From Candidatus Omnitrophota bacterium (GTDB lineage Bacteria > Omnitrophota > Gorgyraeia > Gygaellales > Profunditerraquicolaceae), in NCBI GenBank assembly GCA_026387355.1, contig JAPLLW010000008.1:1016-65015 (forward strand): a stretch of 64,000 nucleotides of DNA, in the 5' to 3' direction. The translations under genes were made by a program, and so were the position numbers. Under the pieces are notes generated by a model, which did not search any database, was not told the origin of the DNA, and saw only the letters and a program-made list of their open reading frames with translations. Positions 33,672 through 60,460 of the stretch are shown in pieces. Each line of letters opens with the position of its first letter. The stretch's first letter is position 1.

Positions 33672-33818
33672 TTATCAGCAAGCTTCCAATCTAATAGACG
33701 CAAAAAACAATGAAATCTAACCAAAATTTCATAAATAATGCTGAATTTGGGATAAATTAGCAGGAGGCGAGAGAAGAAATTACTTGCAATTTAATGCCGA
33801 GATTATATAATAACTCTC

Positions 33819-34788: not shown

Positions 34789-34801
34789 GAGGGGGAGTAG
34801 A

Positions 34802-35617: not shown

Positions 35618-35624
35618 ATAACTT

Positions 35625-45798: not shown

Positions 45799-47032
45799 GA
45801 TAGCTGTAACTGGTATAGGGGTAGTTTCACCGTCCGGGATAGGTAAGCGCCAGCTTTGGGCAAATATCAAAAGCGGCCGTTCATTTATTAAAGAGATCAC
45901 TCGTTTCGATGCCTCTAAATACCCATCGCGCATTGCCGGGCAAATCGATGATTTGGAGAAATATAGCACTATCTCTGAGCGCTTGCTTAAGAAAATCGAC
46001 GCTTTCTCGCATATGGCCTTAATTGCTTCAGAGCTAGCTTTGCAGGATGCTGGAATAGATATTAAAAATGAAGATCCGAGTTTAGTAGGTATATTTCTGG
46101 GAAATGCTATCGGCGGATGGCTTTATGCCGAGACAGAACTGCGCGATATGTATATCGAAGGACGCGAAGGAGTTTCTCCTTATATGGCCTCAGCTTGGTT
46201 TCCGGCTGCGCCACAAGGCCAGGTCTCTATTTATTATGGTATAAAAGGATTCAGTAAGACAGTTGTCGCAGACAGGGCTAGTTCTTTAATGGCGCTAGGT
46301 TATGCCAGAAAAGTTTTAGCTAAAAATAAATTAAATATGATTTTAGGTGGAGGGATGGAAGCCCCAGTTACACCCTATGCGCTTTTATGCTGCAATACTT
46401 ACGGCGCATTATCAAAAGACAATTCTCATCCGCAAGAGGCATACCGGCCGCATGATAAAAAGAGGAATGGTTTTGTAATCGGCGAGGGTTCAGGTATTGT
46501 AGTTATGGAGAGTATTGAACGTGCAAAAAAGCGTCAGGCAAATATTTTAGCTTTAATCTCCGGATATGGCACAACCTGCGATGGGGTAGACCGGATTAAT
46601 TCTGCTAAAGACGGAAAAGAGCTTGCCCGGGCAATAAATATTGCACTTGTTGATGCAAAGGCAAATATCAATGAAATCAATTATATCAGTTTAGATGGAT
46701 TAGCAGTAGATATTTGGGATAATTCTGAAGTGTTGGCTTTAAAAGAAGTCTTTGGTAGCCGCATAAAAGAGATCCCGGTAAGCTGTCCTAAGTCCATGTT
46801 TGGTAATCTGCTCGGTGCTTCCGGGGCATTGGATATGATTATTGCTATACAGGCAATGGAGCACGCTTTAGTTCCTCCGACATTAAATTTAGATGAGCCG
46901 GCATCAAACGGGCTTAATTATATAGGTAAGCAGGCAAAAGAACATACAATCAGAAAAGCTCTGATTATATCACGCGGCAGAGGAGGGATTAATTCTGCGC
47001 TGGTAGTTGAGAAAGGGAGTAACAATGCTTAA
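45791..47032 (+). CDS. Ketosynthase-like partner lacking catalytic residues (chain-length-factor-like)
   Basis: Thiolase-fold homologue of the upstream KS, with the active-site Cys replaced ('TVVADRASS'), the first His absent ('YISLDGLAVD') and the second His replaced by Asn ('KSMFGNLLGASGA'). Its start overlaps the upstream stop (ATGGATAA). Confidence 0.75.
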   Translation: MDKIAVTGIGVVSPSGIGKRQLWANIKSGRSFIKEITRFDASKYPSRIAGQIDDLEKYSTISERLLKKIDAFSHMALIASELALQDAGIDIKNEDPSLVGIFLGNAIGGWLYAETELRDMYIEGREGVSPYMASAWFPAAPQGQVSIYYGIKGFSKTVVADRASSLMALGYARKVLAKNKLNMILGGGMEAPVTPYALLCCNTYGALSKDNSHPQEAYRPHDKKRNGFVIGEGSGIVVMESIERAKKRQANILALISGYGTTCDGVDRINSAKDGKELARAINIALVDAKANINEINYISLDGLAVDIWDNSEVLALKEVFGSRIKEIPVSCPKSMFGNLLGASGALDMIIAIQAMEHALVPPTLNLDEPASNGLNYIGKQAKEHTIRKALIISRGRGGINSALVVEKGSNNA

Positions 47033-47229: not shown

Positions 47230-48693
47230 ATGAAGATTTTATTTGTTATGCCGAAAGTCGGAGCTTGGGCAACACACGGGATACATAGGTCTCCTAACCA
47301 GCTTTATGCACATTGGGCCTCATACGTTAGGGAGACACGCGGTTACGCAGATGTCGCAGTTATTGACGGTAAAGCTGACCAGCTTTCTATGGATGAGCTG
47401 ATTGAACAGGTAAAAAGCAAAAATCCTGATGTTGTGGTTATGGGAGAGCAGTTGCATGGTTACGGCGGATACGGTGTTTTGCGTCATTTTAAAGACGCAG
47501 CTGTTAGGATTAAGACAGTTTTACCTAAGACAAAGATAGTTTTGGGCGGGCTATGGTATTCTGCAATGCCCGTTCCTACACTCGAAGAGAATCCTGCGGT
47601 TGATTTTGTAGTTATGGGAGAAGAGGAATCATTTGGAGATTTGATTGAGGCGCTCGATAAGAATAAGCCCTTGAAAGACGTGGGTGGAGTTACTTCGCGC
47701 ATTGACGGCCAAATTGTTATGGGGCCACATAAGCCGCTTATGATGGATTTGGATAAGTTACCTCTTCCAGCGTACGATTTATTCCCTATGGATAAATATG
47801 TGGGGCATACTTACTGGAAACCGTTTGTAGATATGGTTACCTCGAGGGGTTGTCCATCTGCTTGCACATTTTGCTATGAATGGGATCAGTTTGATCCACG
47901 CTCACCGTCTGATTTTCTGAAATGGCGCGCGAAGTCTCCGGAGAGAGTTATGGAGGAGTTAAATCTCTTACATAAAAAATACGGGGTAAAGGTTGTGGTT
48001 ATTCAGGATGATAATTTTAATGTTGACCCTAAAAGAGTGCAGAAGTTCTGCGAACTTAAAAAAGCAGCAAATAATCCGATTAAGTGGGTATCTTTAGGTC
48101 GTGCCATTGATTGGGTTAACTGCGAATCAATCCTGCCGCTTATGAAAGAGAATGGTTTGTTTATGGGCGTATTCGGTATTGAGGTCACGACACAGTCGGA
48201 ACTCAAAAAAATCGCTAAAGGTATTACTCTAGACCAGATTAAAAAGACGATTGAGATCCTGCGCAGAAATGATATCGCGATTGTCGCAGATATTATGATG
48301 GGTTTTGATTATGATACCGAAGAGATCATTAAGCAGCGTTTTGAGTTTACTGATCAAGTGGACCCGGATATTTTGTGGGTGGGATACGTTACCCCTGCTC
48401 CGAATTCACCGATGTGGAGAATTGCTTTAAAGAAAAACTGGATTGATCCTAAGAAGGTAGATTTTAGCACATGGGATTTTCTACATCCGGTAATTCCCAC
48501 GGATCATTTAACTACTGAAGATTTAGGTAGGCTTGGTTCATGGTGTATGCGTGAGTTTTTCTCAAAACCCGGAAGAATCAACCGGATTATGGAGAGTGAT
48601 TTTGACCCGCTTGCAAAACTTTGTTTCCAGGATGTTATGAACGGTATTAATAAGTGGGAAGCAGCCGCGACTAAGGGAGAAGTGCAGATATAG
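47230..48693 (+). CDS. B12-binding-domain radical SAM protein (class B rSAM)
   Basis: N-terminal B12-binding-like region 'KILFVMPKV...VVVMGEQLHG', then the radical SAM cluster 'VTSRGCPSACTFC' (CxxxCxxC). Confidence 0.75.
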   Translation: MKILFVMPKVGAWATHGIHRSPNQLYAHWASYVRETRGYADVAVIDGKADQLSMDELIEQVKSKNPDVVVMGEQLHGYGGYGVLRHFKDAAVRIKTVLPKTKIVLGGLWYSAMPVPTLEENPAVDFVVMGEEESFGDLIEALDKNKPLKDVGGVTSRIDGQIVMGPHKPLMMDLDKLPLPAYDLFPMDKYVGHTYWKPFVDMVTSRGCPSACTFCYEWDQFDPRSPSDFLKWRAKSPERVMEELNLLHKKYGVKVVVIQDDNFNVDPKRVQKFCELKKAANNPIKWVSLGRAIDWVNCESILPLMKENGLFMGVFGIEVTTQSELKKIAKGITLDQIKKTIEILRRNDIAIVADIMMGFDYDTEEIIKQRFEFTDQVDPDILWVGYVTPAPNSPMWRIALKKNWIDPKKVDFSTWDFLHPVIPTDHLTTEDLGRLGSWCMREFFSKPGRINRIMESDFDPLAKLCFQDVMNGINKWEAAATKGEVQI

Positions 48694-48812: not shown

Positions 48813-49049
48813 ATGGATACAAAATCAAAAGTAAGAGACGTATTAGTAAATTTATTAAAAGTAAAGCCAGATGAATTAAAGGATGATTTGACTCTGCAGG
48901 AGAGTATTGGGGTTGATTCTACTGAGATGGTAGAGTCAGTGATTGCTTTAGAAAAATCGTTCGGGGTAAAGCTTAGCCCGAAGGAGATTACCAAGAATTC
49001 AACAGTTAATGATATTGCTAACAATATCCAATCAAAATTAGCCAAATGA
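48813..49049 (+). CDS. Acyl carrier protein
   Basis: 78 aa; 'LTLQESIGVDSTEMVESVIALEKSFGV' carries the DSxE phosphopantetheine-attachment motif; RBS 'ggaggg'. Confidence 0.8.
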   Translation: MDTKSKVRDVLVNLLKVKPDELKDDLTLQESIGVDSTEMVESVIALEKSFGVKLSPKEITKNSTVNDIANNIQSKLAK

Positions 49050-49843
49050 AGATAGTTGATTTAAGTCTACCGATTGACGAAAAAGCCTTTGAAGTGCATA
49101 AGGTTGATATCGAGCGGGTAACTCATAAAGCCGGTGTTGAGAAATTTAACCGCGTAATTATGGGTAAGACTTTAATCGGTAAAATCAAATACCTTTTGGG
49201 TCAGCGCATAATTAAGCCTCAAGATTTACCGGATGAGGAATTCCTCTCGCTTGAAATCGTGCATTCTCCGGTACATATCGGTACCCACCTGGATTATTCA
49301 TTCCATTACGGTTCAAAATCAGAAGGCCGCGCCTCTAAGACTGCAGATGAGATTCCTTTAGATTGGTGCTATTCTGACGGAGTAAAACTGGATTTATCTC
49401 ATAAGAAACCTAATGAAACGATAAAGGCGCTTGATTTAGCAGAAGCGCTTAAGAAGATAAATTATTTGCTTAAAGCAAATGATATTGTGTTGATCCGTAC
49501 TGGTGCAGATGAATTATACGGCGGACCAAAATATTTTATGGATTACCCCGGGATTGATACATCGTCTATAGATTTTCTTCTGGATAAAGGAATTAAAATA
49601 TTTGGCGTGGATACCATGGGAATTGACCGACCATACCGTTTTATGCTTAAAGAATTTATGGATACAAAAGATATAAAATGTTTTTACCCTGCGCATTTCT
49701 ACGGCAGGAAGCGTGAATTTATTCATATTGAGCGTTTAGCCAATTTAGAGAAATTGCCGGATTATGGATTTAAGGTAATCTGTTTCCCGATTAGAATAAA
49801 GAATACAGGTGCTGCCTGGGCAAGGGTTGTAGCATTATTATAG
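49046..49843 (+). CDS. Cyclase-family protein (kynurenine-formamidase-like metal-dependent hydrolase/cyclase fold)
   Basis: 'HSPVHIGTHLDYSFHYG' HxGTHxDxPxH signature. Confidence 0.7.
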   Translation: MKIVDLSLPIDEKAFEVHKVDIERVTHKAGVEKFNRVIMGKTLIGKIKYLLGQRIIKPQDLPDEEFLSLEIVHSPVHIGTHLDYSFHYGSKSEGRASKTADEIPLDWCYSDGVKLDLSHKKPNETIKALDLAEALKKINYLLKANDIVLIRTGADELYGGPKYFMDYPGIDTSSIDFLLDKGIKIFGVDTMGIDRPYRFMLKEFMDTKDIKCFYPAHFYGRKREFIHIERLANLEKLPDYGFKVICFPIRIKNTGAAWARVVALL

Positions 49844-49845
49844 AA

Positions 49846-49895
49846 TTTTTACTGGTCCTGGCACGGGCGCTTCTCGCGCCAAGCCCCGCAAAGTT
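49846..49895. repeat. Second copy (partial, rearranged) of the structured intergenic element
   Basis: 'ggtcctggcacggg-cgcttctcgcgcc' core is identical to 48702-48730 apart from a 3-nt indel. Its 3' flank 'ccccgcaaag' is the reverse complement of the other copy's 5' flank 'ttttgcgggt'. A GC hairpin ggcgc-ttctc-gcgcc is present. Confidence 0.5.
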
Positions 49896-49913
49896 AGATA
49901 AAAGGAGAATGTT

Positions 49914-50357
49914 ATGGCTGGACATACTTGTAATTCGATTGTTATCAATGCGCCTTATGAGAAGATCTTTGATATTTCAAATGATATTACTCGTTGGACA
50001 GAATTATTCGGCACGGAGTATAAGAAGGCAGAAGTAGTAAAAAAAGAGGCAAACAAAATCACTTTCCGTCTTACGGATGAGGATGACAAGAGCTGGCAGT
50101 CCTGGCGCCTGCTTTTTAAAGATAAATATTTTGCCTATGCCGAACGCGAAGAGCCGAAATTTCCTTTTAAGTATATGAAGATCGTCTGGCTTTATACCCC
50201 TAAGCCCGAAGGCATCGAAATGACCTGGATTCAGCACTTTGAAATGGAAAAAGATTTTAAGTTCAATGACCAGCAGATTGAAGGTTTTATTAATGAAGGC
50301 TCTAAAGAAAACCTTAAGATCTTTAAGCGGATTATTGAAAAAGAAGCTGCTAAGTGA
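49914..50357 (+). CDS. SRPBCC-superfamily protein (polyketide cyclase/dehydrase-like, Polyketide_cyc2 type)
   Basis: 147 aa; 'SIVINAPYEKIFDISNDITRWTELF' START/Bet v1-like N-terminus typical of the TcmN/SnoaL-adjacent cyclase family. Confidence 0.5.
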   Translation: MAGHTCNSIVINAPYEKIFDISNDITRWTELFGTEYKKAEVVKKEANKITFRLTDEDDKSWQSWRLLFKDKYFAYAEREEPKFPFKYMKIVWLYTPKPEGIEMTWIQHFEMEKDFKFNDQQIEGFINEGSKENLKIFKRIIEKEAAK

Positions 50358-51481
50358 AGAAGTCGACTTTTGTTATTTTATGTCTGGAAGGCGCGGTTTT
50401 ATCTTTTAACGTTGCCGCCGCAGCTGCTTTAATACCTTCAATCGCACAAGATTTTGCTCTTTCTCAATTTCTGGTTGGTAATATTGTATGGCTATATATG
50501 ATCCCTTATGGACTGGCTGCGTTTTTCTACGGTCCTCTGATTAGGGCTTTTGACGCAAGGCGCGTAGAATTAATCTGCATGTTTTTGTTTTCCGTAGCAA
50601 ATCTAGTTGCCGGTTTGTCACATAATATTACAACTTTATTTATTGCGCGATTTTTAATGGGGTTATTCGGGGCATCAGTTATACCGCTGGGGTTAATCTT
50701 AATCGGCCAGCGCATATCTCAGGATAGGCGTGGTCGTTTTATCGGAGTATTTTTTAGCACTACCTTTGTTGCGTCTTTGGCGGGACTATTCTTAAGTGGG
50801 ATAATCTCTTGGCGTTTGATTTTCTTGATCCCGGCGGCCCTAGGGTTTCTTCTTTGGGTAGGCATGTATTTTTATCTCCCAAGCTTTAAGGAAGAAAACA
50901 GGATCTTTCGCATGGATTATATTTTGGCTTTTAAGAATAAGAATGTCGTACGCATATTTACCTATATTCTTTTTATCAGCCTTATTTATCATGGTATACA
51001 GCAGTGGTTGGGGGTCTATTTCTCAACCCAGTTAAATTTAAGTCAGTTTATGATCAGTATGCTTATAACATTAACTAGCTTAAGCGGGATTGTGGGAGAG
51101 GTCTGGGGGGGAAGCCTTGCGGATTCGCTAGGTAGACAAAGAGTAGTTAATATAGGTATTATTGCCATGATTGTTTGTATCGGTATCTTAATATTAAAAT
51201 TACCTTTAGCCATTATAGCTTTAGCGATGATTATTTGGGGGTTGGGTTGGACCTTTAACCACGTGGGGTTAGCGACTATGCTTACTGATCTACCGAAAGA
51301 ATTATTAAATGAGGCAGCGAGCTTAAATAGCGGAGTGCGTTTTCTTGCGGGTGGCATAGGAGTTAGTCTGGGTGGTTTGATTATGCATAAGAGTTTTAGT
51401 CTCGGGTTTATTATTTTCGGAAGCGCGTTAACCATGCTTTTATTATCAGGTAAATTAATTAATATAAAAAATAGGGGGTAA
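50354..51481 (+). CDS. MFS transporter
   Basis: 12 TM helices; 'GPLIRAFDARR' MFS loop 2-3-like motif. Confidence 0.75.
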   Translation: MKKSTFVILCLEGAVLSFNVAAAAALIPSIAQDFALSQFLVGNIVWLYMIPYGLAAFFYGPLIRAFDARRVELICMFLFSVANLVAGLSHNITTLFIARFLMGLFGASVIPLGLILIGQRISQDRRGRFIGVFFSTTFVASLAGLFLSGIISWRLIFLIPAALGFLLWVGMYFYLPSFKEENRIFRMDYILAFKNKNVVRIFTYILFISLIYHGIQQWLGVYFSTQLNLSQFMISMLITLTSLSGIVGEVWGGSLADSLGRQRVVNIGIIAMIVCIGILILKLPLAIIALAMIIWGLGWTFNHVGLATMLTDLPKELLNEAASLNSGVRFLAGGIGVSLGGLIMHKSFSLGFIIFGSALTMLLLSGKLINIKNRG

Positions 51482-51483
51482 CT

Positions 51484-52260
51484 ATGAACCAGGACTTAAA
51501 AGGTAAAGTTGCGATTCTAACAGGAGCTAGTCGAGGTATTGGTAAGGCACTTGCTTGCACAGCTGCAGGCTTAGGGATCAACTTAACTCTTGCTGCGCGC
51601 GGAGAGGGTCCCTTGAAGGAGACAGCTGATGAGATTGCCAAGAAATATAAAGTTCAGGTTTTACCTGTTTCTTGCGATGTTACAAAGTTAGAAGATTTGG
51701 AGAATCTGGTGAATAAGACAAAAGAAAAATACGGTAAAATTGATATTCTGATTAATTGCGCAGGTGTATCCAGTCAGTTTCCTTTTCAGTTGCAGCCGAT
51801 AGAGGATTTTGAGAGATTGGCGTATACCAATTATCTAGGTTATGTGCGGCTTATCCGTTTAGTGATCAATGATATGATCGAGCAGAAATACGGGGCAATT
51901 ATAAATATAGTCTCAGGTTCCACCCTGGTCGACCCTGTTCCGAGAAACTTTATTGTTTATAGCTCTTTAAAGGTAGGGTTACGTGCTTTTTCTAAGGGGC
52001 TCTTCTGGGAATTACGCGATCATGGGATTAAAGTAACTTCAATATTGCCGGGGGTAACAGATACTGATCTTACCGGGAAGTTGAAAGATATCACTAATGA
52101 TACATCGCGTTTAATGAGTACTCAGGCAATCGAAGATGCGGTTAAGTTTGCTTTGACCGTGCCGCAGAATGTCTGCCCGCTTGAGATTTCTGTAATCAAT
52201 CAGCAAACGCCATGGACTGCGCCGGTTATACCATTTAAACAAGCGCACCCGGGTAAATAA
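51484..52260 (+). CDS. Short-chain dehydrogenase/reductase (SDR; ketoreductase-like)
   Basis: 'TGASRGIGKALA' and 'NCAG' motifs; catalytic 'YSSLK'. Confidence 0.85.
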   Translation: MNQDLKGKVAILTGASRGIGKALACTAAGLGINLTLAARGEGPLKETADEIAKKYKVQVLPVSCDVTKLEDLENLVNKTKEKYGKIDILINCAGVSSQFPFQLQPIEDFERLAYTNYLGYVRLIRLVINDMIEQKYGAIINIVSGSTLVDPVPRNFIVYSSLKVGLRAFSKGLFWELRDHGIKVTSILPGVTDTDLTGKLKDITNDTSRLMSTQAIEDAVKFALTVPQNVCPLEISVINQQTPWTAPVIPFKQAHPGK

Positions 52261-52280
52261 AACAACGGGAAAGTTAAGAA

Positions 52281-52676
52281 ATGATGCAAGAAAATGATTT
52301 AAAGAACTTGAAAAAACGCTATCTTATCTGGTTTTACAAAGTCAGTAAAGAGGCTTTGGATAAAATTGAGCGTAAATTCTCGCAGGTTGATATCGACCGC
52401 TTTATCTTAAAAAAGCTGAAGAGATCAGATAAGCATGAAGCCATAGAATTTTTTATCGCGCAGTTTTCTGATTATATCGAGAAAAAAGAACAGGATGGCT
52501 TGAATCTCAAGTTCGAAAATAAAAAGTTAAAACCGGAGTATTTATTCTTGGTTTTGAAATTACAGGCGATTGAGAAGGCGATAGTAAAAGAGTTGGGAAA
52601 GAAAGCTCTTGTTGAGATTAAGCGGCTTTATGAGACAGAGATGACTGAGCGCATTTTAAGGAGCACAGAACACTAA
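52281..52676 (+). CDS. Hypothetical protein
   Basis: 131-aa Lys/Glu-rich ORF, co-directional within the cluster. Confidence 0.3.
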   Translation: MMQENDLKNLKKRYLIWFYKVSKEALDKIERKFSQVDIDRFILKKLKRSDKHEAIEFFIAQFSDYIEKKEQDGLNLKFENKKLKPEYLFLVLKLQAIEKAIVKELGKKALVEIKRLYETEMTERILRSTEH

Positions 52677-53582
52677 ATGTTAGTTGATAGCCACTCACAT
52701 TGGTTACCAGAGGCAATAATCAGCAATGCCCATTTTTATCATAAAGGTTGGGGGGATATTGAGGCTCAACTAAAGATGATGGATGAAGCGGGTATTGATA
52801 AGGCAGTCTTATCTTATCCGACTTCGGATGCGCATCTAAAATTAGGAAGTATCTCAGAAGTCGTACGTATTTTTAACGACCATGTGGCAAGGGTTTTAAA
52901 GAAATATCCGGAGAGATTTATCGGCGCAGCAATTCTACCGATTGATCATGAGCAGGATATGATTAAAGAATTTAAACGCGCAACCGAAGAGCTAGGTTTT
53001 AAGGCAATTTCATTAGCTACAAGTTATAACGGGGTTTACCTAGACGACGCTAGATTCCTTAATATTTATAAATTAGCCCAAGATGAGAATATTCCTATCT
53101 TTGTGCATTCGCAAATTGTAAAACCTATTGGTATTGAACGAGTGGAAGATCCGTTACTTACCCCAGTGATCGAGTATGTTTTTGATACGACTATATGCAT
53201 CGGTAAGCTTTTAATGTCGGATATTCTGCGCGATTATCAGGCGAAGTTTATCTTTGGTTATTTTGGAGGTGTGACTCCGTTTTTAGCAAATCGCTTTGAC
53301 ACAACCTATGCAATGTTGCGGGGGGTGAATTTTGTTAAGGATTTAAAAGGTAATCCTACAGATTTCTTAAAGAATATTTATGTTGATACTAGCGGAGATA
53401 AAACTAAGGCCAATTTTGCTGCGGCTTTAGAGCTGGTTGGGCCAAAACATATTCTATGGGGGAGCGACTATCCGGCAAAGAAAGATACCTCCTCAGGCAT
53501 TCAGGCAATTAAAGAATTAGGTATATCAGTAGATGATAAGAATAATATTTTGGGAGGCAATTTAGAAAGGATGCTAAAATGA
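52677..53582 (+). CDS. Amidohydrolase-2 family (TIM-barrel metal-dependent hydrolase/decarboxylase)
   Basis: 'MLVDSHSHWLP' N-terminal HxH; 'FVHS'; 'WGSDYP' C-terminal Asp motif. Confidence 0.65.
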   Translation: MLVDSHSHWLPEAIISNAHFYHKGWGDIEAQLKMMDEAGIDKAVLSYPTSDAHLKLGSISEVVRIFNDHVARVLKKYPERFIGAAILPIDHEQDMIKEFKRATEELGFKAISLATSYNGVYLDDARFLNIYKLAQDENIPIFVHSQIVKPIGIERVEDPLLTPVIEYVFDTTICIGKLLMSDILRDYQAKFIFGYFGGVTPFLANRFDTTYAMLRGVNFVKDLKGNPTDFLKNIYVDTSGDKTKANFAAALELVGPKHILWGSDYPAKKDTSSGIQAIKELGISVDDKNNILGGNLERMLK

Positions 53583-54046
53583 AGCTGGAAATTACGGTTT
53601 TAACTTTATTTTTAGCGGTATTTTATATGAATCTATTAACTGCTGAGCCAATGCCCGAGGCAATTGCAGTAAATGATCAGACAAAGGAGTGCGCAGTATT
53701 TTTTCTAGGTGATGAATGCACGGATTGTAGTGTACCAGAGGGGTGGAGGCAGACAGGCTATTCTAATCAGTCTGATTGCCCGGATGGATATAAGAAGATT
53801 GATACTGTTGAATCAGTATGCACCCCGAGAAAAACAGCTTTTTGTTGTTCAGAAAATCATTCCGGGACTAATGGTAATTGCCGGGATTTAGTTATTAATG
53901 AAACAAGTAAAGAATGCGCTTTTTTAGAAGATGTAAATAGTTGTTTAAGTTTGTCGCAAGGATGGAAAACAGGAGACTTGTGTCCGGGTAATTTTCAGTG
54001 GCAACAGGATCCCCTTGATTGTGGAACAAGAAGTAAACAAAATTAA
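53579..54046 (+). CDS. Secreted Cys-rich protein with an internal repeat
   Basis: Signal peptide; 12 Cys residues; two repeats '[ST]KECA...C...GW(R/K)(Q)TG...CP(D)G(Y/N)(K/F)'. Confidence 0.45.
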   Translation: MKLEITVLTLFLAVFYMNLLTAEPMPEAIAVNDQTKECAVFFLGDECTDCSVPEGWRQTGYSNQSDCPDGYKKIDTVESVCTPRKTAFCCSENHSGTNGNCRDLVINETSKECAFLEDVNSCLSLSQGWKTGDLCPGNFQWQQDPLDCGTRSKQN

Positions 54047-54134
54047 TGTATTTATAGCGGGTGGCTGCTGATATGGGATGGATCAGCAGACAGGACCCGC
54101 TAAGAAAAGAATAAAAATAAAAAGGAGAAATAAG

Positions 54135-54884
54135 ATGCAGATGGTTAAAGATGTACATTTAACGGGTAAAGATTTAACTGATATGGTGCAACTCAGGCCG
54201 CAGGATGTGGGCAAATATGCGATTGTCCCGGGCCCTCGCGATAGGCTGGACGTCTTATTGAAGAAATTCGATAATCCGGTGAAGAATTTTACTTTTATGG
54301 AATATTCCATGTATACAGGTATGGTCGAAGGAGTAAGAATAAGCGCGATTAACGGCGGAAGGTTTTCGACGGATACCTCAATTACGACAGAAGTTATCTG
54401 TAATGCGCAAATCCAGAATATTATCCGCGTAGGTACTTGCGGTTCACTCGATGAAAATATCAAAATTGGAGATATATTCGTGGTTGATGAGATAATCCGC
54501 GGAGACGGGGTTACTCCATATTATGTGGATAAGGATTTCAAGACCGTAGCGGATAAAAAGATCTCCGATACCTTATATGAAATAGGTAAAGGTATGGGTT
54601 TAAATATCCATCGCGGTAAAGCCTGGACTACTGATGCTCTTTTGCGAGAGACTCGAGAAATAGTTGAAGCCAAACGCAAGGAAGGAGCCAAGGTAGTAGA
54701 TATGGTTTCATCAACCCTGCTTACCATTGCCCAGACTTATAAAATTAAAGCCGGATCAATCCTTGCGGTAAGCGATAATGTAGTAACAGGCGAGATGGGC
54801 TTTATGAACCCTTTGTATTATATGGCAGAAGCAAATATTTTAAAGATTGCTTTGGAAGCTGTCAATAAGCTAGAATTAAAATAA
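54135..54884 (+). CDS. Nucleoside phosphorylase (PNP/UDP family 1; purine/uridine/MTA phosphorylase-like)
   Basis: 'HLTGKDL...YAIVPGPRDRLDVL' and 'IRVGTCGSL' are family signatures. The start is set at the ATG at 54135 with RBS aaaggag at 54121-54127. Confidence 0.75.
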   Translation: MQMVKDVHLTGKDLTDMVQLRPQDVGKYAIVPGPRDRLDVLLKKFDNPVKNFTFMEYSMYTGMVEGVRISAINGGRFSTDTSITTEVICNAQIQNIIRVGTCGSLDENIKIGDIFVVDEIIRGDGVTPYYVDKDFKTVADKKISDTLYEIGKGMGLNIHRGKAWTTDALLRETREIVEAKRKEGAKVVDMVSSTLLTIAQTYKIKAGSILAVSDNVVTGEMGFMNPLYYMAEANILKIALEAVNKLELK

Positions 54885-55207
54885 TGCATACACTTTCGAG
54901 AGTTATAGGAATCTGGTTTATTTTACTGGGGTTAGGATTGACTATGGGGTATGGTCTTAACAATCCAGAGGAAAGCAGGAAAGGGATTCTCTTTTTTATA
55001 TTTATGACTTTCATTATTTTGGGGATTGGGGTTACTGGTTTAAGGAACTGGGCAAGAATCGCCTTAACTTTTGCTACAGCTTTTGCAGTAGTTGTTTCTC
55101 TTATGTATAATCTTCGCGAAGGTTTAGTAATGCTGATACTTTTTTCACCGGTTATCGTTTTGCAGCTAAAGAGTGCTAAGAAGCAGTTTACTCTTTGGAA
55201 ACCATGA
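54884..55207 (+). CDS. Small membrane protein (hypothetical)
   Basis: 107 aa with 3-4 hydrophobic helices. Confidence 0.3.
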   Translation: MHTLSRVIGIWFILLGLGLTMGYGLNNPEESRKGILFFIFMTFIILGIGVTGLRNWARIALTFATAFAVVVSLMYNLREGLVMLILFSPVIVLQLKSAKKQFTLWKP

Positions 55208-56130
55208 AATTTTCACCACTATTCTGGCCAATTCAATTAAAGGGCAACACAATCTACATACTTGATGAGACTTTGTTGCCCCAGAAGCTTAGCTACATAA
55301 AAGCTAAGGATTATAAGCAGGCATGCCGCGCAATAAGAGAGATGAAGACGCGCGCTGTGGGTCAAGTTTTATTGGTAATGTATATTTTTCTGCAGTTAAT
55401 TAAGCAGGGCAGACAGAATGAGATAGCAAAAGTAGCCAATGCGATCAACGCTACGCGGCCGACACTTTCGTTTAAATCTTTAACCGACATGGTCTTAGGT
55501 TGGTCAAAAAGCAAAGCGCCTTTAGAAAAATGTATACTTGGTTTCTTGGAAGGCTTAAAATATAGCCGCATAAAGCAGGCAGAAGAGGCCAGCAAGTTAA
55601 TTAAAGACAAAGATGTAATTCTTACTCATTGTAATGTCAGTGGGCTCCTACCTTTAATCGGAGAAATTTGCCTTAAACAAAATAAGAAAATAAGCTTCTT
55701 TGCTACAGAGACTCGTCCTTACCTGCAGGGTTCACGTCTTACCGCGTGGGAATTAAAGAGGGCAGGTTTTGATGTAACCATTATTACTGATGGAATGACC
55801 GCTTCAGTAATCTCGCAGGGTAAAGTAAATAAGGTAATAGTAGGAGCAGATCATTTAGCGCTTAATGGCGATATTGCTAATAAAGTAGGAACTTATGCCA
55901 TTGCGGTCATCGCAAAATACTTCGGCATTCCTTTTTATGTACTCTGCCCTCCCGCATCGGGGTTAAAGTCCGGAAAAGATATTAAGATTGAAATAAGGCC
56001 GGATATTGAGATGTTGGAATATCAGGGATTACGCCTTGCGCCCAAAGGTGTAAAGGGATATTATCCTGCGTTTGATGTTACCCCAGCGGAATTAATTACT
56101 AAACATATACATTTGGAGATAAAAAGATGA
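55195..56130 (+). CDS. eIF-2B alpha/beta/delta-family sugar-phosphate isomerase (MtnA-like)
   Basis: 'ATETRPYLQGSRLTAWEL', 'VIVGADHLALNGDIANKVGTY', 'GIPFYVLCP'. Confidence 0.8.
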   Translation: METMKFSPLFWPIQLKGNTIYILDETLLPQKLSYIKAKDYKQACRAIREMKTRAVGQVLLVMYIFLQLIKQGRQNEIAKVANAINATRPTLSFKSLTDMVLGWSKSKAPLEKCILGFLEGLKYSRIKQAEEASKLIKDKDVILTHCNVSGLLPLIGEICLKQNKKISFFATETRPYLQGSRLTAWELKRAGFDVTIITDGMTASVISQGKVNKVIVGADHLALNGDIANKVGTYAIAVIAKYFGIPFYVLCPPASGLKSGKDIKIEIRPDIEMLEYQGLRLAPKGVKGYYPAFDVTPAELITKHIHLEIKR

Positions 56131-57128
56131 TTTTCTGTAAAGAGAGAGCTCTAAAGAAGGAAATTATAAATGTCGGCAAGCGGCTTTATCAAACAGGCCT
56201 GGCTGTTGCTAAATCCGGCAACATTAGCGCCCGGTTAGACGATGAGCATATTTTGATTACGGCAACTGGAACTTCTTTAGGTAATTTGAAATATCAGGAT
56301 ATAGTTAAAGTAGATTTAGAAACAGGCAGGGTTTGTGGAAATATTAATCCTAGTTCTGAGTTACTGCTGCATTCTTTGGTCTATAAGAATTTTAAAGCAA
56401 AAACCGCGATTCATTGTCACCCTCCGTTAATTAACGGATATTTTGCGGTGACTGATGACTTAAAGGCGTTGACTTTTGAAACTAAATTCTATTTAGGCAA
56501 CGTTCCTGTAGTTGCGCAGGAGACACCTACTGTAACTAAGCCCGAAGCAGTAATCGCGGCTCTTAAAACAAATAACCTGGTTGTACTTAAGAATCACGGT
56601 ACAGTTGCTATTGCTGATAAGTTTTCAGATGGCCTTAGTCTTACTGAAGCCTTAGAAGAGGCAGTGCGTACAACCGCGCTAGCCAGGATCTTTAAGAAAG
56701 ATATTCTTGATGACTTGGATAAAGCTACGAAAGATGACCTAAGTAAGTCTATTGCTTTCCCGATGTTTTCCCGTGAGCATATTCAGGCGATTGTTGATCT
56801 GGTGAATAAGGATGAGTTTATCGCCCAGAAGGGGAGAGAGTTGGATTTAACCTTAAAGCTAGCTATAAAGTTAGATGGAAGCGATAAAGCTTACAAATTT
56901 AACTTTGAAAAAGGAAAGATTGTTAAGTTGGATTTTAATGCTGATGCGCCATTTGTTATCTCTGCGCCAGCAGCTGTCTGGGAGCAGGTTTTCCTGGGTA
57001 AGCTAGATTCATTTGTAGCAGTTACGCAGGGTAAGATGAAATTAACAGGCCAGTTAGGGCAGCTATCTAAATGGTATGTTCCGTTTTCGCGGCTTTTTGG
57101 GATATTTAAGGAAGTAAGGATAAAGTAA
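56127..57128 (+). CDS. Class II aldolase/adducin-domain protein fused to a C-terminal SCP2 sterol-carrier-like domain
   Basis: 'AKSGNISARLDDEHILITATGTSLG' and 'HSLVYKNFKAKTAIHCHP' (class II aldolase metal site). C-terminal 'KFNFEKGKIVKLDFNADAPFVISAPAAVWEQVFLGKLDSFVAVTQGKMKLTGQLGQL' is SCP2-like. Confidence 0.75.
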   Translation: MIFCKERALKKEIINVGKRLYQTGLAVAKSGNISARLDDEHILITATGTSLGNLKYQDIVKVDLETGRVCGNINPSSELLLHSLVYKNFKAKTAIHCHPPLINGYFAVTDDLKALTFETKFYLGNVPVVAQETPTVTKPEAVIAALKTNNLVVLKNHGTVAIADKFSDGLSLTEALEEAVRTTALARIFKKDILDDLDKATKDDLSKSIAFPMFSREHIQAIVDLVNKDEFIAQKGRELDLTLKLAIKLDGSDKAYKFNFEKGKIVKLDFNADAPFVISAPAAVWEQVFLGKLDSFVAVTQGKMKLTGQLGQLSKWYVPFSRLFGIFKEVRIK

Positions 57129-57130
57129 AT

Positions 57131-58615
57131 ATGAATAAATACCAACTATTTATTAACGGAAAGTTTGTTGAGACTAAAGAGAAACAGAATATTCTTAATC
57201 CTTCAACGGGCAAAGTTATTGCTGATACAGGGATTGCTTCTCTTAGTGAAGTTGATTTAGCTATTACCAGCGCGCGTAAGGCTTTTGATGAAGGAGAGTG
57301 GCCTAAGCTTTCCCTGGAAGAACGCAAGGGTTTTCTCATAAAGATTAAACAGGGAATCTTAGATTGCGCGGCAGAGCTTGCCAGCATCGAGAGTGCAAAT
57401 TCCGGTAAGCCGATCAAAGAAACAACTTTTATGGACATCCCATCAAGTGCCAAGGCATTTGAAGATATTGCCAATAAATTCGAAAGTTATCTGCATGATG
57501 AGAATATAAATGTTTCAGAAGCTGCAAAAGCGAATTTAAGGCGTGAGCCGGCCGGTGTAGTAGTTTTAATTGTCCCCTGGAACTATCCTTTATTGATTGC
57601 CTCTTGGAAATTGGCGCAGGCACTTGCCGCGGGTAACACAGTGGTAATAAAACCTTCCAGCCTTACTCCTTTAAGTCTGCTTATCTTAGCCAGGATTATA
57701 AAAGAAGCAGGTCTACCCGAAGGGGTAGTAAATATTATTAACGGTAGCGGAAGTGTTATAGGAGAAGCATTGTGTTCGGATAAGAGGGTGGATATGGTTT
57801 CGTTTACCGGGAGTAATGAAGTGGGAAGGCAGATTCTTAATTATTCCTCCAAGAATATCAAGAAATTAACTATGGAGTTAGGAGGAAAATCTGCAAGTTT
57901 AGTATTCTCAGATATGGATATTGATACTGCAGTGAATGCCTCGCTCTGCTCTATATTTTTGAACCAGGGGCAGATGTGTACTGCTATGTCGCGCATATTT
58001 GTTGAGGAAGGTATTTTTGATAAATTCACCAAAGATTTTGTGGCTAAGGCTATGCGTATTAAATTGGGCCTTGCCGATGATTACGAAACGCAGATGGGTC
58101 CGTTAATTAGCGATGCTCAGCGTAAAAGAGTTATCGCATTCTTAGAGAAGGCCAAGGCTGAGGGTGCAAAACTTTTATGCGGCGGGAAGATTCCTAAGGC
58201 ACAAGATTTAATAAACGGGTATTTTTTTGAACCCACAGTTGTCGTTAATGTTAACACGCACTCACATATATTCAAAGAAGAGGTTTTTGGGCCGGTAGTT
58301 ATAATTAATGAATTTTCCAGCACTGAGGAAGCTGTGCGTCTGGCGAATGATTCTGATTTTGGCTTAGCCAGCTGTATATGGACTAAAGACTTAAGTTTAG
58401 CAGAAGATTTAGCTAAGAGGATAAATGCCGGGACCATCTGGATTAATACTTACGGTATGTTTTATAATGAGCTTCCATACGGTGGATTTAAGCAGAGCGG
58501 TTTCGGTAAAGAATTAGGCAGGGAGGGATTCCTAGAATATACCAGGCTTAAGAATATAGTTATTGATCAGACGCCCGATGCTAAACCTCTTGTAAATTAT
58601 TGGTATGGATTCTAG
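57131..58615 (+). CDS. NAD(P)-dependent aldehyde dehydrogenase
   Basis: 'ELGGKSASLVF' and catalytic 'FLNQGQMCTAMSRIFV'; 494 aa. Confidence 0.9.
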   Translation: MNKYQLFINGKFVETKEKQNILNPSTGKVIADTGIASLSEVDLAITSARKAFDEGEWPKLSLEERKGFLIKIKQGILDCAAELASIESANSGKPIKETTFMDIPSSAKAFEDIANKFESYLHDENINVSEAAKANLRREPAGVVVLIVPWNYPLLIASWKLAQALAAGNTVVIKPSSLTPLSLLILARIIKEAGLPEGVVNIINGSGSVIGEALCSDKRVDMVSFTGSNEVGRQILNYSSKNIKKLTMELGGKSASLVFSDMDIDTAVNASLCSIFLNQGQMCTAMSRIFVEEGIFDKFTKDFVAKAMRIKLGLADDYETQMGPLISDAQRKRVIAFLEKAKAEGAKLLCGGKIPKAQDLINGYFFEPTVVVNVNTHSHIFKEEVFGPVVIINEFSSTEEAVRLANDSDFGLASCIWTKDLSLAEDLAKRINAGTIWINTYGMFYNELPYGGFKQSGFGKELGREGFLEYTRLKNIVIDQTPDAKPLVNYWYGF

Positions 58616-58628
58616 CGGATAAGATAAA

Positions 58629-59342
58629 ATGAAGGCGCTTATATCTTTATGGGTTTGGGTAGCTACAGCCGTATTAACAATTACGTTATATTTTGTCGTT
58701 TTTTTTGTCGTAATTATATCCTGGCCTTTTGACAAAAGTAGAAAGCTTGCCCACGCGCAATGTTTTTGGTGGTCAAATTGCATATTGCGTATGAATCCTT
58801 TCTGGAAGCTAGAAGTTAATGGGCTTGAAAATATTGACCATAAAAAGACGTATGTGATTATCTCTAATCACCAGAGTATGGCAGATATCGTCGTGCTTTA
58901 TAAGATCCATACGCAATTTAAGTGGGTATCCAAGGAAAGTCTTTTTCGGGTTCCTTTTATAGGATGGTGTTTATCACTTACTAAACATATAAAGCTTGCG
59001 CGCGGAGAATTCTCAAGTATAAAAAAGATTTATCGCGAAGCCGCAGAATGGCTTAGGAAAGATATGTCGGTATTATTTTTCCCTGAAGGAACTCGCAGCG
59101 AAACCGATGAGATGAATGTTTTTCAGAACGGAGCCTTCAAATTAGCCATAAAAGAAAAGAAACCCATTCTCCCGATTTGTTTAAAAGGCACCCGGGAAAC
59201 TATTCCTAAGGGTAGTTGGGTCTTCAGAGCAACAGTTAAAGCCAGCCTCACAGTATTACCTGCCATTGAAACCAGCCAGTTGTCGCCAGGTGATTTCGTT
59301 TTATTAAGGGATGAAGTTTTTGCCAAGATTAATAGCGCCTAA
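58629..59342 (+). CDS. 1-acyl-sn-glycerol-3-phosphate acyltransferase-like (PlsC family)
   Basis: 'NHQSMADIVV' (HX4D) and 'FPEGTRS' motifs; N-terminal TM. Confidence 0.8.
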   Translation: MKALISLWVWVATAVLTITLYFVVFFVVIISWPFDKSRKLAHAQCFWWSNCILRMNPFWKLEVNGLENIDHKKTYVIISNHQSMADIVVLYKIHTQFKWVSKESLFRVPFIGWCLSLTKHIKLARGEFSSIKKIYREAAEWLRKDMSVLFFPEGTRSETDEMNVFQNGAFKLAIKEKKPILPICLKGTRETIPKGSWVFRATVKASLTVLPAIETSQLSPGDFVLLRDEVFAKINSA

Positions 59343-59389: not shown

Positions 59390-60460
59390 ATGAAAAGCAA
59401 GGTTTACTTTATAGGCGTAAGCGAATCGGATTATTCGTTAACCATTCAAAGTAAGCTCAAGCATCTTCTTGATAAAGCCGGGTTGTTTGACCATATCAAG
59501 GCAAATGACAGAGTTTGCGTGAAATTACATTTTGGTGAGGAAGGCAATACCGGATTTGTTAAACCTGAATACCTGCGTATTATCTGTGATAAGTTAAAAG
59601 GAAAGCTCGCCCGCCCGATATTGAGCGATACGAATACCCTTTATAAGGGCTTGCGTACTAATTCCAAGGATCATCTTAAGCTTGCACATGAACATGGTTT
59701 TACTCCTGAAAATACTGGCGTAGAAGTGATTATCCCTGATGACAAAATAAAAGATAATTGTAAAGAGATAGAGATCAATCAGAAGTTTATAAAGTTTGCA
59801 AAAGTCTCCAGCCTTTTTATAGATGCAGATGCTTTAGTGGGCGTCGCCCATTTTAAAGGCCATATTATGACTGGTTTTGGCGGTGCGCTTAAGAATATCG
59901 GAATGGGTTGCGCTATTCGCGAAGGAAAACTTCAGCAGCATTCAAATATTGCGCCGATTATTTATTTGGATGCTTGTGTTGCTTGCGGCGCCTGCGTGGA
60001 GGCCTGTCCGGTAAAGGCGATAACTCTAAAAGACAAAAAAGCGTATATTGATAGCGCTACGTGTATTGGTTGCGCTAGTTGTCTCGCCGCATGTAATTAT
60101 CATGCAATTGATGTGCATTGGGCATCAGGAGGAGATACGATTCAGGAAAAAATGATTGAATATGCCTCTGCTGTCTTGGGAAAACAAAAAAATAAACCCG
60201 TTTTCATTAATTTCTGCATTAAGATTACCAAAGAATGCGACTGTTTGGCTAAGGATGATCCCAGGGTTGTTTCGGATATCGGGATATTAGCTTCACTAGA
60301 TCCGGTGAGTCTTGATAAGGCCTGTTTGGATATGATTGAGAAAAGAGCAGGCAGGGATATATTCAAAGAATTACATCCTGACCGGGATGGTTATAAGCAG
60401 CTTAAATATGCCGCTGCTTTAGGATTAGGTAATCTCGACTATGATTTATTATCGGTTTAG
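59390..60460 (+). CDS. DUF362-domain protein with 2x[4Fe-4S] ferredoxin insert
   Basis: 'CVACGACVEACP' and 'CIGCASCLAACNYH'. Confidence 0.7.
   Translation: MKSKVYFIGVSESDYSLTIQSKLKHLLDKAGLFDHIKANDRVCVKLHFGEEGNTGFVKPEYLRIICDKLKGKLARPILSDTNTLYKGLRTNSKDHLKLAHEHGFTPENTGVEVIIPDDKIKDNCKEIEINQKFIKFAKVSSLFIDADALVGVAHFKGHIMTGFGGALKNIGMGCAIREGKLQQHSNIAPIIYLDACVACGACVEACPVKAITLKDKKAYIDSATCIGCASCLAACNYHAIDVHWASGGDTIQEKMIEYASAVLGKQKNKPVFINFCIKITKECDCLAKDDPRVVSDIGILASLDPVSLDKACLDMIEKRAGRDIFKELHPDRDGYKQLKYAAALGLGNLDYDLLSV

Follow-up and report, generated by a model that had tools for sequence, protein, structure and literature searches.

A DHAP-shunt-type gene module with an SCP2-fused class II aldolase in a conserved lipid/polyketide-type gene cluster of Omnitrophota

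The dihydroxyacetone phosphate (DHAP) shunt, also described as 5-deoxyribose salvage, proceeds through MtnP or MtnN plus MtnK, MtnA/DrdI, and Ald2/DrdA (PMC6079011, PMC10986504). A related set of four genes is found in a 64-kb stretch of a Candidatus Omnitrophota genome (GenBank assembly GCA_026387355.1, contig JAPLLW010000008.1, positions 1,016 to 65,015; hereafter the window, whose own coordinates are used throughout), which has a G+C content of ~40% and genes nearly all on the + strand. These genes (54135–58615, +) encode a nucleoside phosphorylase, an MtnA-like isomerase, a class II aldolase with a C-terminal SCP2 domain, and an aldehyde dehydrogenase (ALDH), and constitute a DHAP-shunt-type module within a conserved Omnitrophota lipid/polyketide-type cluster. 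The predicted steps shared with the shunt are base release to a pentose-1-phosphate, isomerization of the 1-phosphate, and aldol cleavage to DHAP and an aldehyde; in both cases the genes lie side by side, the isomerase of the module is nearest to MtnA, and its aldolase is like FucA/DrdA in fold and residues. However, the module departs from the established pathway in that its phosphorylase is of the DeoD/Udp type with an altered sugar pocket rather than an MtnP, its isomerase does not attain the equivalog scores for MtnA and is missing a conserved loop, its aldolase bears the SCP2 domain, a dedicated ALDH would oxidize the aldehyde that is otherwise reduced, and the whole is hard-wired into a cluster with a ketosynthase/chain-length-factor (KS/CLF) pair, an acyl carrier protein (ACP), and a radical S-adenosylmethionine (SAM) enzyme. 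The initial annotation, made from the nucleotides and their open reading frames (ORFs), had matched the first three genes to the logic of the shunt; this holds for the trio as such, for the MtnA-like isomerase, and for the intact catalytic residues, but none of the three reaches an equivalog score and their substrate-contact motifs are altered.

Other described systems share individual elements with this cluster. In the formation of the hopanoid side chain by HpnH/HpnG, a homolog of the purine nucleoside phosphorylase (PNP) family takes adenine off a lipid-linked adenosine (PMC13459092). There, as would be the case here, a radical SAM enzyme and a PNP_UDP_1 enzyme belong to one lipid pathway, and HpnJ is the second-best match of the cluster's radical SAM enzyme; however, the phosphorylase of the module is not HpnG, the radical SAM enzyme, a B12-binding one, does not resemble HpnH, and hopanoids keep all five ribose carbons, whereas the module would discard three as DHAP. 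The futalosine route (MqnE, MqnB, MqnC, and MqnD) likewise combines radical addition of an adenosyl group, removal of the base by a PNP_UDP_1 enzyme, and a partial loss of the ribose, some of whose carbons are kept. It differs in its base-removing enzyme, since our phosphorylase attains only 26 bits against futalosine hydrolase (cut-off 124.7); of its components, MqnE is described in PMC13459092. Finally, clusters combining KS and B12-radical-SAM genes have been recognized by antiSMASH as 'ladderane-type' outside the anammox bacteria, Omnitrophota included, with their function being unknown (PMC9902471, PMC2649909). Our cluster has in common with them the KS/CLF-like pair, the ACP, and the B12-binding radical SAM enzyme, but its radical SAM protein scores 71 bits against TIGR04072 (cut-off 360). 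For the anammox ladderane clusters themselves, a 2026 preprint reports a KS/CLF-type pair. Neither a phosphorylase nor an aldolase is mentioned in the one of the two papers on ladderane-type clusters that was searched for them, and our literature search recovered no paper linking Omnitrophota clusters with this module.

The four genes, which the initial annotation called consecutive, are all present on the + strand with strong family matches, though an additional short ORF splits the first from the second. The phosphorylase gene (54135–54884; 249 aa; a homolog of the hexameric-type NP-I PNPs; PF01048, 113.8 bits, E=1e-32) lies in a longest ORF that spans 54078–54884, of which 54135 encodes Met20, with the 249-aa product agreeing with the length of its homologs. 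It is followed by a hydrophobic 107-aa ORF (54884–55207, +) with no match in the Pfam and NCBIfam scans, which is an annotated gene on a contig of the same species (L005; the prefix L marks related loci throughout) but for which tblastn found nothing in 80 related loci; this ORF is specific to its lineage and only possibly expressed. A 155-aa Cys-rich ORF with a signal-peptide-like N-terminus (53579–54046) is likewise without a counterpart in those 80 loci, and each of the two ORFs interrupts an otherwise conserved gene order. The isomerase (55204–56130, +; 308 aa; PF01008, 181.9 bits; IF-2B, E=2e-53) has an alternative TTG start at 55195. The fusion protein (56127–57128, +; 333 aa), which is 100% identical to a GenBank protein from a 'Candidatus Omnitrophica bacterium' MAG (P0001), consists of a class II aldolase domain (residues 1–190, 56127–56696; PF00596, 117.2 bits, E=1e-33, matched over residues 12–182), a flexible linker (56697–56759; predicted local confidence, pLDDT, <50 at residues 196–207), and an SCP2-fold domain (residues ~212–333, 56760–57128; PF02036, 23.2 bits against a gathering score of 21.3, matched over residues 245–312). 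The last gene codes for an NAD(P)-dependent ALDH of the hydrolytic type (57131–58615, +; 494 aa; PF00171, 550.7 bits, E=3e-165). Across 49046–59342 the intergenic gaps are at most 70 bp, several genes overlap, and all run in the same direction; the four-gene module is the 3' part of a far longer co-directional packed cluster.

The phosphorylase has its best NCBIfam scores with Udp (106 bits, cut-off 280) and DeoD (81–90 bits, cut-offs 230–232) and attains 21.7 bits against the model for 5'-methylthioadenosine (MTA) phosphorylase (TIGR01694, cut-off 274.85), in agreement with its first description as DeoD/Udp-like rather than MtnP-like. Its closest solved structure is the Udp of S. pyogenes (3qpb, 99 bits), with E. 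coli Udp and Bacillus DeoD at ~75 bits. Futalosine hydrolase (26.4 bits against 124.7) and HpnG (41.3 bits against 187.1) were rejected as identities, the latter score counting against HpnG itself and not against an HpnG-like manner of working. The protein keeps the DeoD-type 'SD..TGE' base-pocket motif and, when aligned to 1k3f, is without the Udp-specific insertion carrying Gln166/Arg168, features that together make a purine the likely base of its substrate. It also retains the equivalents of the phosphate ligands Arg24, Arg87, and Ser/Thr90 (as R24, R87, and T90), that of Asp204, and an N-terminal His within a Udp-like 'VHLTGKDL' motif, the residue that in Udp contacts the ribose 5'-OH. In DeoD, Udp, and the MTA nucleosidases, the ribose 2'/3'-hydroxyls are bound by the second Glu of the canonical 'EME' motif; here the motif is 'DMV', such that the equivalent of Glu181 is Val, and Met replaces Arg43 of DeoD (Arg48 of Udp), a phosphate-site Arg donated by the neighboring subunit. 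These changes are common to six aligned members, drawn from two Omnitrophota clades and a metagenome-assembled genome (MAG) labelled Syntrophaceae, which also share a new conserved motif, 'NGGRFSxDT'; 'DMVS' is essentially invariant in 61 sequences of the first clade. The key points of the comparison with E. coli DeoD and Udp were confirmed against PDB alignments. An ordinary DeoD (scores below cut-offs, Glu181 to Val, Arg43 to Met) and a Udp (106 bits against 280, Gln166/Arg168 insertion absent) were both rejected, and the protein represents a distinct subfamily that is neither an ordinary DeoD nor a Udp nor an MtnP.

The isomerase passes the subfamily model TIGR00524 (192.5 bits, cut-off 185.85) and stays under the MtnA equivalogs (TIGR00512, 221.8 against 279; NF004326, 236 against 271). 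The choice between MtnA and ribose-1,5-bisphosphate isomerase, which the initial annotation had named as a check, falls on the MtnA side both by profile (236 bits, against 110 bits for TIGR00511 with a cut-off of 314) and by solved structure (175 bits to T. maritima MtnA, 1t9k, against 86 bits to the ribose-1,5-bisphosphate isomerase 5yfj). Its catalytic Cys ('THCN') and Asp ('VGAD'), which are Cys160 and Asp240 in B. subtilis numbering, have aligned counterparts in five solved MtnAs (T. maritima, A. fulgidus, 4ldq/4ldr, and B. subtilis). Relative to the same five structures, a 5-residue loop after the Cys motif is lacking, and the 'RGAPAIG' motif is shorter than in the T. maritima enzyme. Since none of the reading frames of the window contains a RuBisCO active-site motif, and in view of the profile and PDB scores, a pentose bisphosphate pathway with a ribose-1,5-bisphosphate isomerase and RuBisCO was rejected. 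In the second Omnitrophota clade and the Syntrophaceae-labelled MAG (L087, 9583–10008; L088, 9481–9999; L089, 9361–9879; L090, 9306–9785), the gene of the full-length isomerase is separated from that of the aldolase by a short paralog corresponding to the C-terminal half of the isomerase (141–172 aa), which the window's clade lacks.

The aldolase domain matches YgbL, FucA, and DrdA in Foldseek searches (TM-score normalized to the target, 0.77–0.84), DrdA being the 5-deoxyribulose-1-phosphate aldolase. Across 26 aligned fusion proteins, which share 22–59% identity with that of the window, G31, N32, S34, E78, H82, H96, H98, E118, H157, G158, and E177 are invariant. Of these, N32, E78, H96, H98, and H157 correspond to Asn29, Glu73, His92, His94, and His155 of FucA; the metal-binding His residues, the catalytic Glu, and the phosphate-binding Asn/Ser (N32 and S34) are also aligned in a comparison with 6voq. 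Loss of the metal-binding His residues, named at the outset as a finding that would refute the DHAP-shunt reading, is not seen: H96, H98, H157, and E78 persist in all these divergent fusions. The second acid/base residue of FucA, Tyr113, is replaced by Phe in 23 of the 26, with the invariant Glu118 following. The MtnB dehydratase is an improbable identity (TIGR03328, 55.7 bits against 137, covering residues 13–101 only), as are the OtnC decarboxylase and the AraD epimerase (below cut-offs, with the FucA/DrdA-type Glu kept).

The SCP2 fold of the aldolase C-terminus is genuine: the initial call of this domain is borne out by a PF02036 match above gathering and by an AlphaFold model (residues 205–333, pLDDT 92.3) that matches the Thermus SCP2 structures 2cx7/1wfr (TM-score 0.77–0.79, E=1e-9), with further structural matches to UbiJ-SCP2, the archaeal AF1534, animal and yeast SCP2, the MFE-2 SCP-2L domain, and the C-terminal domain of alkylsulfatases. 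The SCP2 domains of MFE-2, alkylsulfatases, and UbiJ bind or recruit lipidic substrates. While MFE-2/SCP-2L, the alkylsulfatases SdsA1/Pisa1, and UbiJ thus share the C-terminal fold, none of them is joined to a class II aldolase, and the closest structures, 2cx7 and 3bn8, belong to bacterial and archaeal SCP2 proteins that stand alone and have no known role. Within the domain, 15 residues, many of them aromatic or hydrophobic, are invariant across the Omnitrophota, Syntrophaceae-labelled, and other lineages, and every full-length member of the family has it. Full-length fusions of 331–335 aa occur in more than 120 clusters at 90% identity (~27 representatives at 50% identity), so that an assembly artifact is not at issue. 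The family as a whole amounts to ~1,300 90%-identity clusters with the window protein as query (E ≤ 1e-5) and ~570 with a second-clade query (E ≤ 1e-20), from at least three phyla; all the fusion sequences found are from MAGs or metagenomes, with no cultured host among them. No structure with a class II aldolase–SCP2 fusion occurs among the PDB structure matches, and the literature search found no paper joining 'SCP2' with 'class II aldolase'; within these searches the domain has never been described for the DHAP shunt. The fusion, first noted as unusual, is the defining trait of a family in three phyla, nearly always with lipid genes as neighbors.

The ALDH has the betaine-aldehyde (509 bits) and aminobutyraldehyde (502 bits) dehydrogenases as its top models, with all scores below cut-off, and its 'MELGGKS' (Glu249) and 'GQMCTA' (Cys283) motifs are conserved in 71 orthologs. 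These are features typical of class 1/2/9-like aldehyde oxidizers of the hydrolytic type, and the earlier expectation that the enzyme would oxidize rather than reduce its substrate is in keeping with the residues retained. Because the hydrolytic-type Glu and Cys are kept, the cleavage direction of the module is supported.

To delineate the genomic context, one genome per species was scanned, yielding 328 loci that encode an aldolase–SCP2 relative, the best 80 of which are all from Omnitrophota; in these 80, searched by tblastn with the window proteins and counted as eligible where enough flank is available, the gene order and strand of the window are kept wherever the flank suffices. In the module itself, the isomerase is present in 70 of 71 eligible loci, the ALDH downstream of the aldolase in all 65 (median identity 70%), and the phosphorylase in 57 of 64. 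The cluster, all on the + strand, is headed by an ApbA/PanE-family reductase (42924–43931) and a 199-aa protein with two copies of the uncharacterized Cys-containing TIGR04076 domain (43933–44532), followed by two FabF-like ketosynthases. KS1 (44533–45798) keeps Cys/His/His, whereas KS2 (45791–47032), which is CLF-like, has Arg/Asp/Asn at the triad positions, as compared with E. coli FabF; the pair is hence a KS/CLF-type heterodimer. Next come a B12-binding radical SAM enzyme (47230–48693; PF02310 and PF04055; 36 of 40 loci), the ACP (48813–49049; 78 aa with a 'GVDS' phosphopantetheine attachment motif; 39 of 41), a PF04199 cyclase assigned by Pfam (49046–49843; 40 of 41), and, as assigned by Pfam and by the annotation of L001/L003, an SRPBCC/polyketide-cyclase-like protein (49914–50357; 43 of 43), a major facilitator superfamily (MFS) transporter (50354–51481), a short-chain dehydrogenase/reductase (SDR)-type ketoreductase (51484–52260; 46 of 46), and an Amidohydro_2 protein (52677–53582; 50 of 51), with a 131-aa ORF (52281–52676) preceding the latter. 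A PP-binding gene occupies the same place as the ACP gene in L001, L003, L087, and L090. The tandem TIGR04076 protein, directly upstream of the KS genes, was also observed in L053 and L090.

In a second Omnitrophota clade, whose aldolase is only ~40% identical to that of the window, the order is shuffled while the gene content remains as in the window's clade: PadR, an acyl-CoA-ligase-like gene, the phosphorylase (1–2 copies), the isomerase, its short paralog, the aldolase–SCP2 fusion, and the ALDH are followed by the radical SAM enzyme, ApbA (again beside the KS genes), KS, CLF, ACP, cyclase, SRPBCC, and MFS. That the gene content survives such rearrangement is good evidence for a functional unit. 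Accordingly, the salvage cluster of the initial annotation is not self-contained: both in the 80 loci and in the rearranged clade, the module is integral to a conserved KS/CLF-ACP-B12-radical-SAM cluster. The radical SAM protein has BchE (206 bits) and HpnJ (158 bits), both below cut-offs, as its best NCBIfam models, and is likely the source of 5'-deoxyadenosine or of an adenosyl adduct. Its identity across species has a median of 90% and reaches 96%, as against 60–85% for the other cluster proteins; no gene of the cluster is better conserved, and the constraint on it is unusually strong. The cluster occurs in at least 80, and probably in more than 300, Omnitrophota species; this wide presence and the ~90% identity of the radical SAM enzyme indicate that it encodes something of core importance in a phylum of which hardly any members are in culture. 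A subgroup of loci (L086, L053, L060, L071, L072, and L081) lacks the phosphorylase gene at its usual place, which in L086 (8245–9051) is taken by a class IV aminotransferase (IlvE/PabC-like, below cut-offs), and in these six, the members with enough flank, the radical SAM gene has moved to between SDR and Amidohydro_2.

The neighbors of the fusion gene repeatedly include genes of lipid metabolism. The FadD-like ligases encoded beside the module in relatives reach 420–463 bits with the long-chain-fatty-acid-CoA ligase subfamily (cut-off 476) as against 245–271 bits with acetate-CoA ligase (cut-off 729). In the Syntrophaceae-labelled MAG (L089), an operon combines an LpxL-like acyltransferase, which ends 2 bp before the phosphorylase gene, with the phosphorylase, isomerase, short isomerase paralog, and aldolase–SCP2 genes, and no KS, radical SAM, or ALDH gene lies nearby. 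In Pseudomonadota MAGs (L103, 2171–13691, and L098) the fusion occurs in a succession of MarR, MMPL, LolA-like/DUF1329, DUF1302, a zinc-dependent alcohol dehydrogenase (Zn-ADH), an LsrF-like protein, aldolase–SCP2, an acyl-CoA-ligase-like protein, and an LpxL-like protein, while genes for a phosphorylase, an isomerase, or a radical SAM enzyme are absent over 10 kb; to judge from its gene content, this operon looks like a self-contained unit for making and exporting an outer-membrane lipid. An unfused relative of the aldolase (P0154, 45% identical), encoded on a 1.3-kb contig, is flanked on one side by such a ligase and on the other by a hydrophobic ORF that is possibly MMPL-like. Thus, acyl-CoA ligases, lipid acyltransferases, and lipid exporters recur beside the aldolase–SCP2 gene in four layouts and three phyla; L091, where the fusion stands alone without lipid-gene neighbors, is unlike the other layouts recovered.

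The pair formed by the Zn-ADH, of the secondary-alcohol type, and the LsrF-like protein (L098, 7562–9900; L103, 8323–9940) also appears in one Omnitrophota locus (L003, identical to L055, GCA_030650425.1; 9013–10843), where a Zn-ADH and an LsrF-equivalog DeoC-family protein are inserted between the aldolase and the ALDH; it is absent from the window. LsrF is a thiolase of autoinducer-2 degradation that splits 3-hydroxy-5-phosphonooxypentane-2,4-dione to DHAP and acetyl-CoA, so that it releases DHAP as the aldolase would. The LsrF-like aldolase neighbors score 356 and 500 bits (cut-off 297), and no other lsr genes (lsrK, lsrG, or a transporter) lie beside them. This pair might provide a thiolytic route from a pentulose-1-phosphate to DHAP and an acyl-CoA; the literature search found no paper tying LsrF to DHAP-shunt or methionine-salvage terms.

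Given these associations, we propose that the module performs DHAP-shunt chemistry on a pentose phosphate bearing a hydrophobic tail, i.e., a lipid or polyketide chain, a proposal to which we would give an even chance. The phosphorylase would act on a 5'-modified (5'-deoxy-type) purine nucleoside to release a 5-substituted pentose-1-phosphate by phosphorolysis; the MtnA-like isomerase, with its Cys/Asp pair, would convert this to the pentulose-1-phosphate; and the class II aldolase, with its three His metal ligands and Glu, would cleave the C3-C4 bond to give DHAP and an aldehyde comprising C4, C5, and the C5 substituent. The ALDH would then oxidize the aldehyde to a carboxylate, which in the relatives the adjacent FadD-like ligase might activate. 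In this proposal the SCP2 domain would hold a hydrophobic chain attached at C5, and the module would trim an adenosyl or ribosyl group linked to a lipid or polyketide instead of merely clearing free 5'-deoxyadenosine. HpnH/HpnG and MqnE/MqnB are precedents for a PNP-family enzyme that works on a lipid-linked or aromatic adduct formed by a radical SAM enzyme (PMC13459092). Gene content, domain folds, catalytic residues, and conserved linkage are shown by the data, whereas the substrates, the flux direction, and the source of the nucleoside are inferred from homology, residue conservation, and gene neighborhoods. A hydrophobic partner is favored because SCP2 is conserved in all full-length members, because ligases, acyltransferases, and exporters recur across the layouts, and because the phosphorylase and isomerase diverge family-wide at their substrate-contact motifs. 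If so, the enzymes of the DHAP shunt have been co-opted to process a nucleoside or pentose phosphate linked to a lipid, the class II aldolase–SCP2 fusion represents a new enzyme family, and a handle is gained on the unexplained 'ladderane-like' KS and B12-radical-SAM clusters of many anaerobes.

Several observations weigh against this proposal. We know of no adenosylated or ribosylated lipid from these organisms, and the B12-binding, BchE/HpnJ-like radical SAM enzyme is unlike the adenosyl-adding HpnH and MqnE. The retained N-terminal His of the phosphorylase would fit a small polar 5' group, and the Zn-ADH and LsrF-equivalog beside the aldolase in some loci fit a small (methyl) substituent. 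In the full-length model of the fusion, both domains are confident, but the linker is not and the placement of SCP2 relative to the active site is not confidently predicted (predicted TM-score, pTM, 0.56). The gene-neighborhood evidence is, moreover, circumstantial.

The trimming of a hydrophobic substrate could also serve synthesis, with the 5'-deoxyadenosyl group of SAM furnishing a two-carbon building block for the lipid or polyketide, though we regard this as unlikely. Here the radical SAM enzyme would attach the adenosyl C5' to an unsaturated acyl or ACP-bound intermediate, and the phosphorylase, isomerase, and SCP2-tethered aldolase would remove adenine and DHAP, leaving behind a -CH2-CHO stub. 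The ALDH would turn this into -CH2-COOH, e.g., as a branch or an omega-carboxyl, and the FadD-like ligase and acyltransferases would use the product. This would amount to a new type of carbon-chain extension, a phosphorolytic/aldolase counterpart of the use of ribose carbons in the futalosine route.

Alternatively, the module might run the plain DHAP shunt in the service of the cluster's radical SAM enzyme, converting free 5'-deoxyadenosine (perhaps MTA) to adenine, DHAP, and acetaldehyde (or 2-methylthioacetaldehyde). We hold this to be the main rival and a serious possibility, albeit one on the unlikely side. The ALDH would then form acetate, from which the ligase could produce acetyl-CoA for AccA/KS, while SCP2 would dock the aldolase to the membrane or a lipid complex. 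The combination of phosphorylase, MtnA-like isomerase, and class II aldolase is the signature of the established pathway, phosphorylase variants included (PMC6079011, PMC10986504). A radical SAM gene whose product must release 5'-deoxyadenosine is nearby, directly after the ALDH in the second clade, and is BchE/HpnJ-like, unlike the adenosyl-adding enzymes; the phosphorylase retains a purine-type base pocket and the N-terminal His; AccA is encoded upstream in both the window and L090; and, by our inference, a Zn-ADH acting at C4 of 5-deoxyribulose-1-phosphate would yield the known substrate of LsrF, and thereby DHAP and acetyl-CoA, in L003/L055. However, enzymes of small soluble substrates offer no reason for a conserved SCP2 domain, nor does the plain shunt account for the fusion in lipid-export operons from whose surroundings phosphorylase, isomerase, and radical SAM genes are missing over 10 kb, for the 2-bp linkage to an LpxL-like acyltransferase in L089, for ligases that are long-chain-like rather than of the acetate type, or for three core enzymes that all fall under the equivalog scores with altered substrate-contact motifs. 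We adopt the reaction types of the initial annotation, which are the natural ones for this trio, while the lipid-gene context and SCP2 argue against its acetaldehyde or 2-methylthioacetaldehyde as the sole product. Were plain salvage nonetheless to operate, it would to our knowledge be the first 5'-deoxyadenosine salvage built into a biosynthetic cluster beside the radical SAM enzyme that feeds it, with the aldehyde being oxidized, and would suggest that a core lipid of Omnitrophota is made with an exceptionally high flux through radical SAM chemistry.

A doubtful alternative, to which we attach a low probability, reverses the direction: the aldolase–SCP2 protein would join DHAP and a fatty aldehyde to form a long-chain ketose-1-phosphate, and in Omnitrophota the isomerase and phosphorylase, also running in reverse, would lead to a 5'-alkyl nucleoside or polyol-phosphate lipid head, with acylation and export to follow. 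The Pseudomonadota and Syntrophaceae-labelled layouts, with only building and exporting genes (ligase, LpxL-like, MMPL/LolA-like/DUF1302), are in keeping with this, and nucleoside phosphorylases are reversible. Furthermore, class II DHAP aldolases add to many aldehydes, as in the assays of DrdA (PMC6079011). On the other hand, a hydrolytic-type ALDH after the aldolase in 65 of 65 loci fits the removal of an aldehyde rather than its supply, and the Pfam/NCBIfam scans recognized in the cluster no thioester reductase able to supply a fatty aldehyde. We know of no such nucleolipid.

That none of these readings applies is, in our estimate, very improbable. Catabolism of ribonucleosides, in which ribose-1-phosphate would pass via ribulose-1-phosphate to DHAP and glycolaldehyde and the latter to glycolate, as a short-cut of the haloarchaeal non-carboxylating pentose bisphosphate route, is the least probable of all: the kept N-terminal His with its 5'-OH role in Udp, a weak match (65 bits against a cut-off of 300) to the model for the haloarchaeal ribulose-1-phosphate aldolase, and an ALDH that could oxidize glycolaldehyde are outweighed by an isomerase that is MtnA-like and not ribose-1,5-bisphosphate-isomerase-like, by the lack of a kinase, phosphatase, or RuBisCO-type gene nearby and of a RuBisCO motif in the window, by the loss of the canonical Glu that binds the ribose 2'/3'-OH, and by the SCP2 domain and fixed KS/ACP/radical SAM linkage, which it leaves unexplained.

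Neither regulatory RNAs nor transcription signals further delimit the cluster: an Rfam scan of the whole window gave no riboswitch or RNA-regulator match at gathering score, and promoter and terminator scans of 42–61.5 kb returned counts equal to those in shuffled sequence and are uninformative on operon boundaries. On its 3' side, a homolog of the PlsC-type 1-acyl-glycerol-3-phosphate acyltransferases (58629–59342, +; PF01553, 101 bits; TIGR00530, 107.9 bits, above the cut-off of 102.95) starts 13 bp past the ALDH, but of 57 eligible loci just 13 have it in this place. It is succeeded by a DUF362 gene whose product contains a 2x[4Fe-4S] ferredoxin insert (59390–60460); in L089, from the Syntrophaceae-labelled MAG, a DUF362 gene likewise precedes the module at a distance of a few kb. 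On the 5' side, the + strand upstream of ApbA encodes AccA, PadR, MarR, an RND efflux set, and a flavodoxin-like protein. The left boundary (32115–37084), with a minus-strand ComM/Mg-chelatase-like gene, a LysM-YkuD transpeptidase, AccA, and PadR, is common to the window and the distant L090 (580–5751). In L090 the block from phosphorylase to ALDH directly follows PadR and the ligase, which suggests that this block moved to the 3' end in the window's lineage. Further upstream, 275–32118 is occupied by a large polysaccharide/O-antigen-type cluster with two Wzz/GNVR tyrosine-kinase-like proteins (275–2419, +, and 26730–28820, −), a Wzy-like ligase, a flippase, a hexapeptide acyltransferase, several glycosyltransferases of families GT1/GT4 and GT9 (heptosyltransferase-like), SAM methyltransferases, a DegT aminotransferase, and a Poly_export/SLBB protein.

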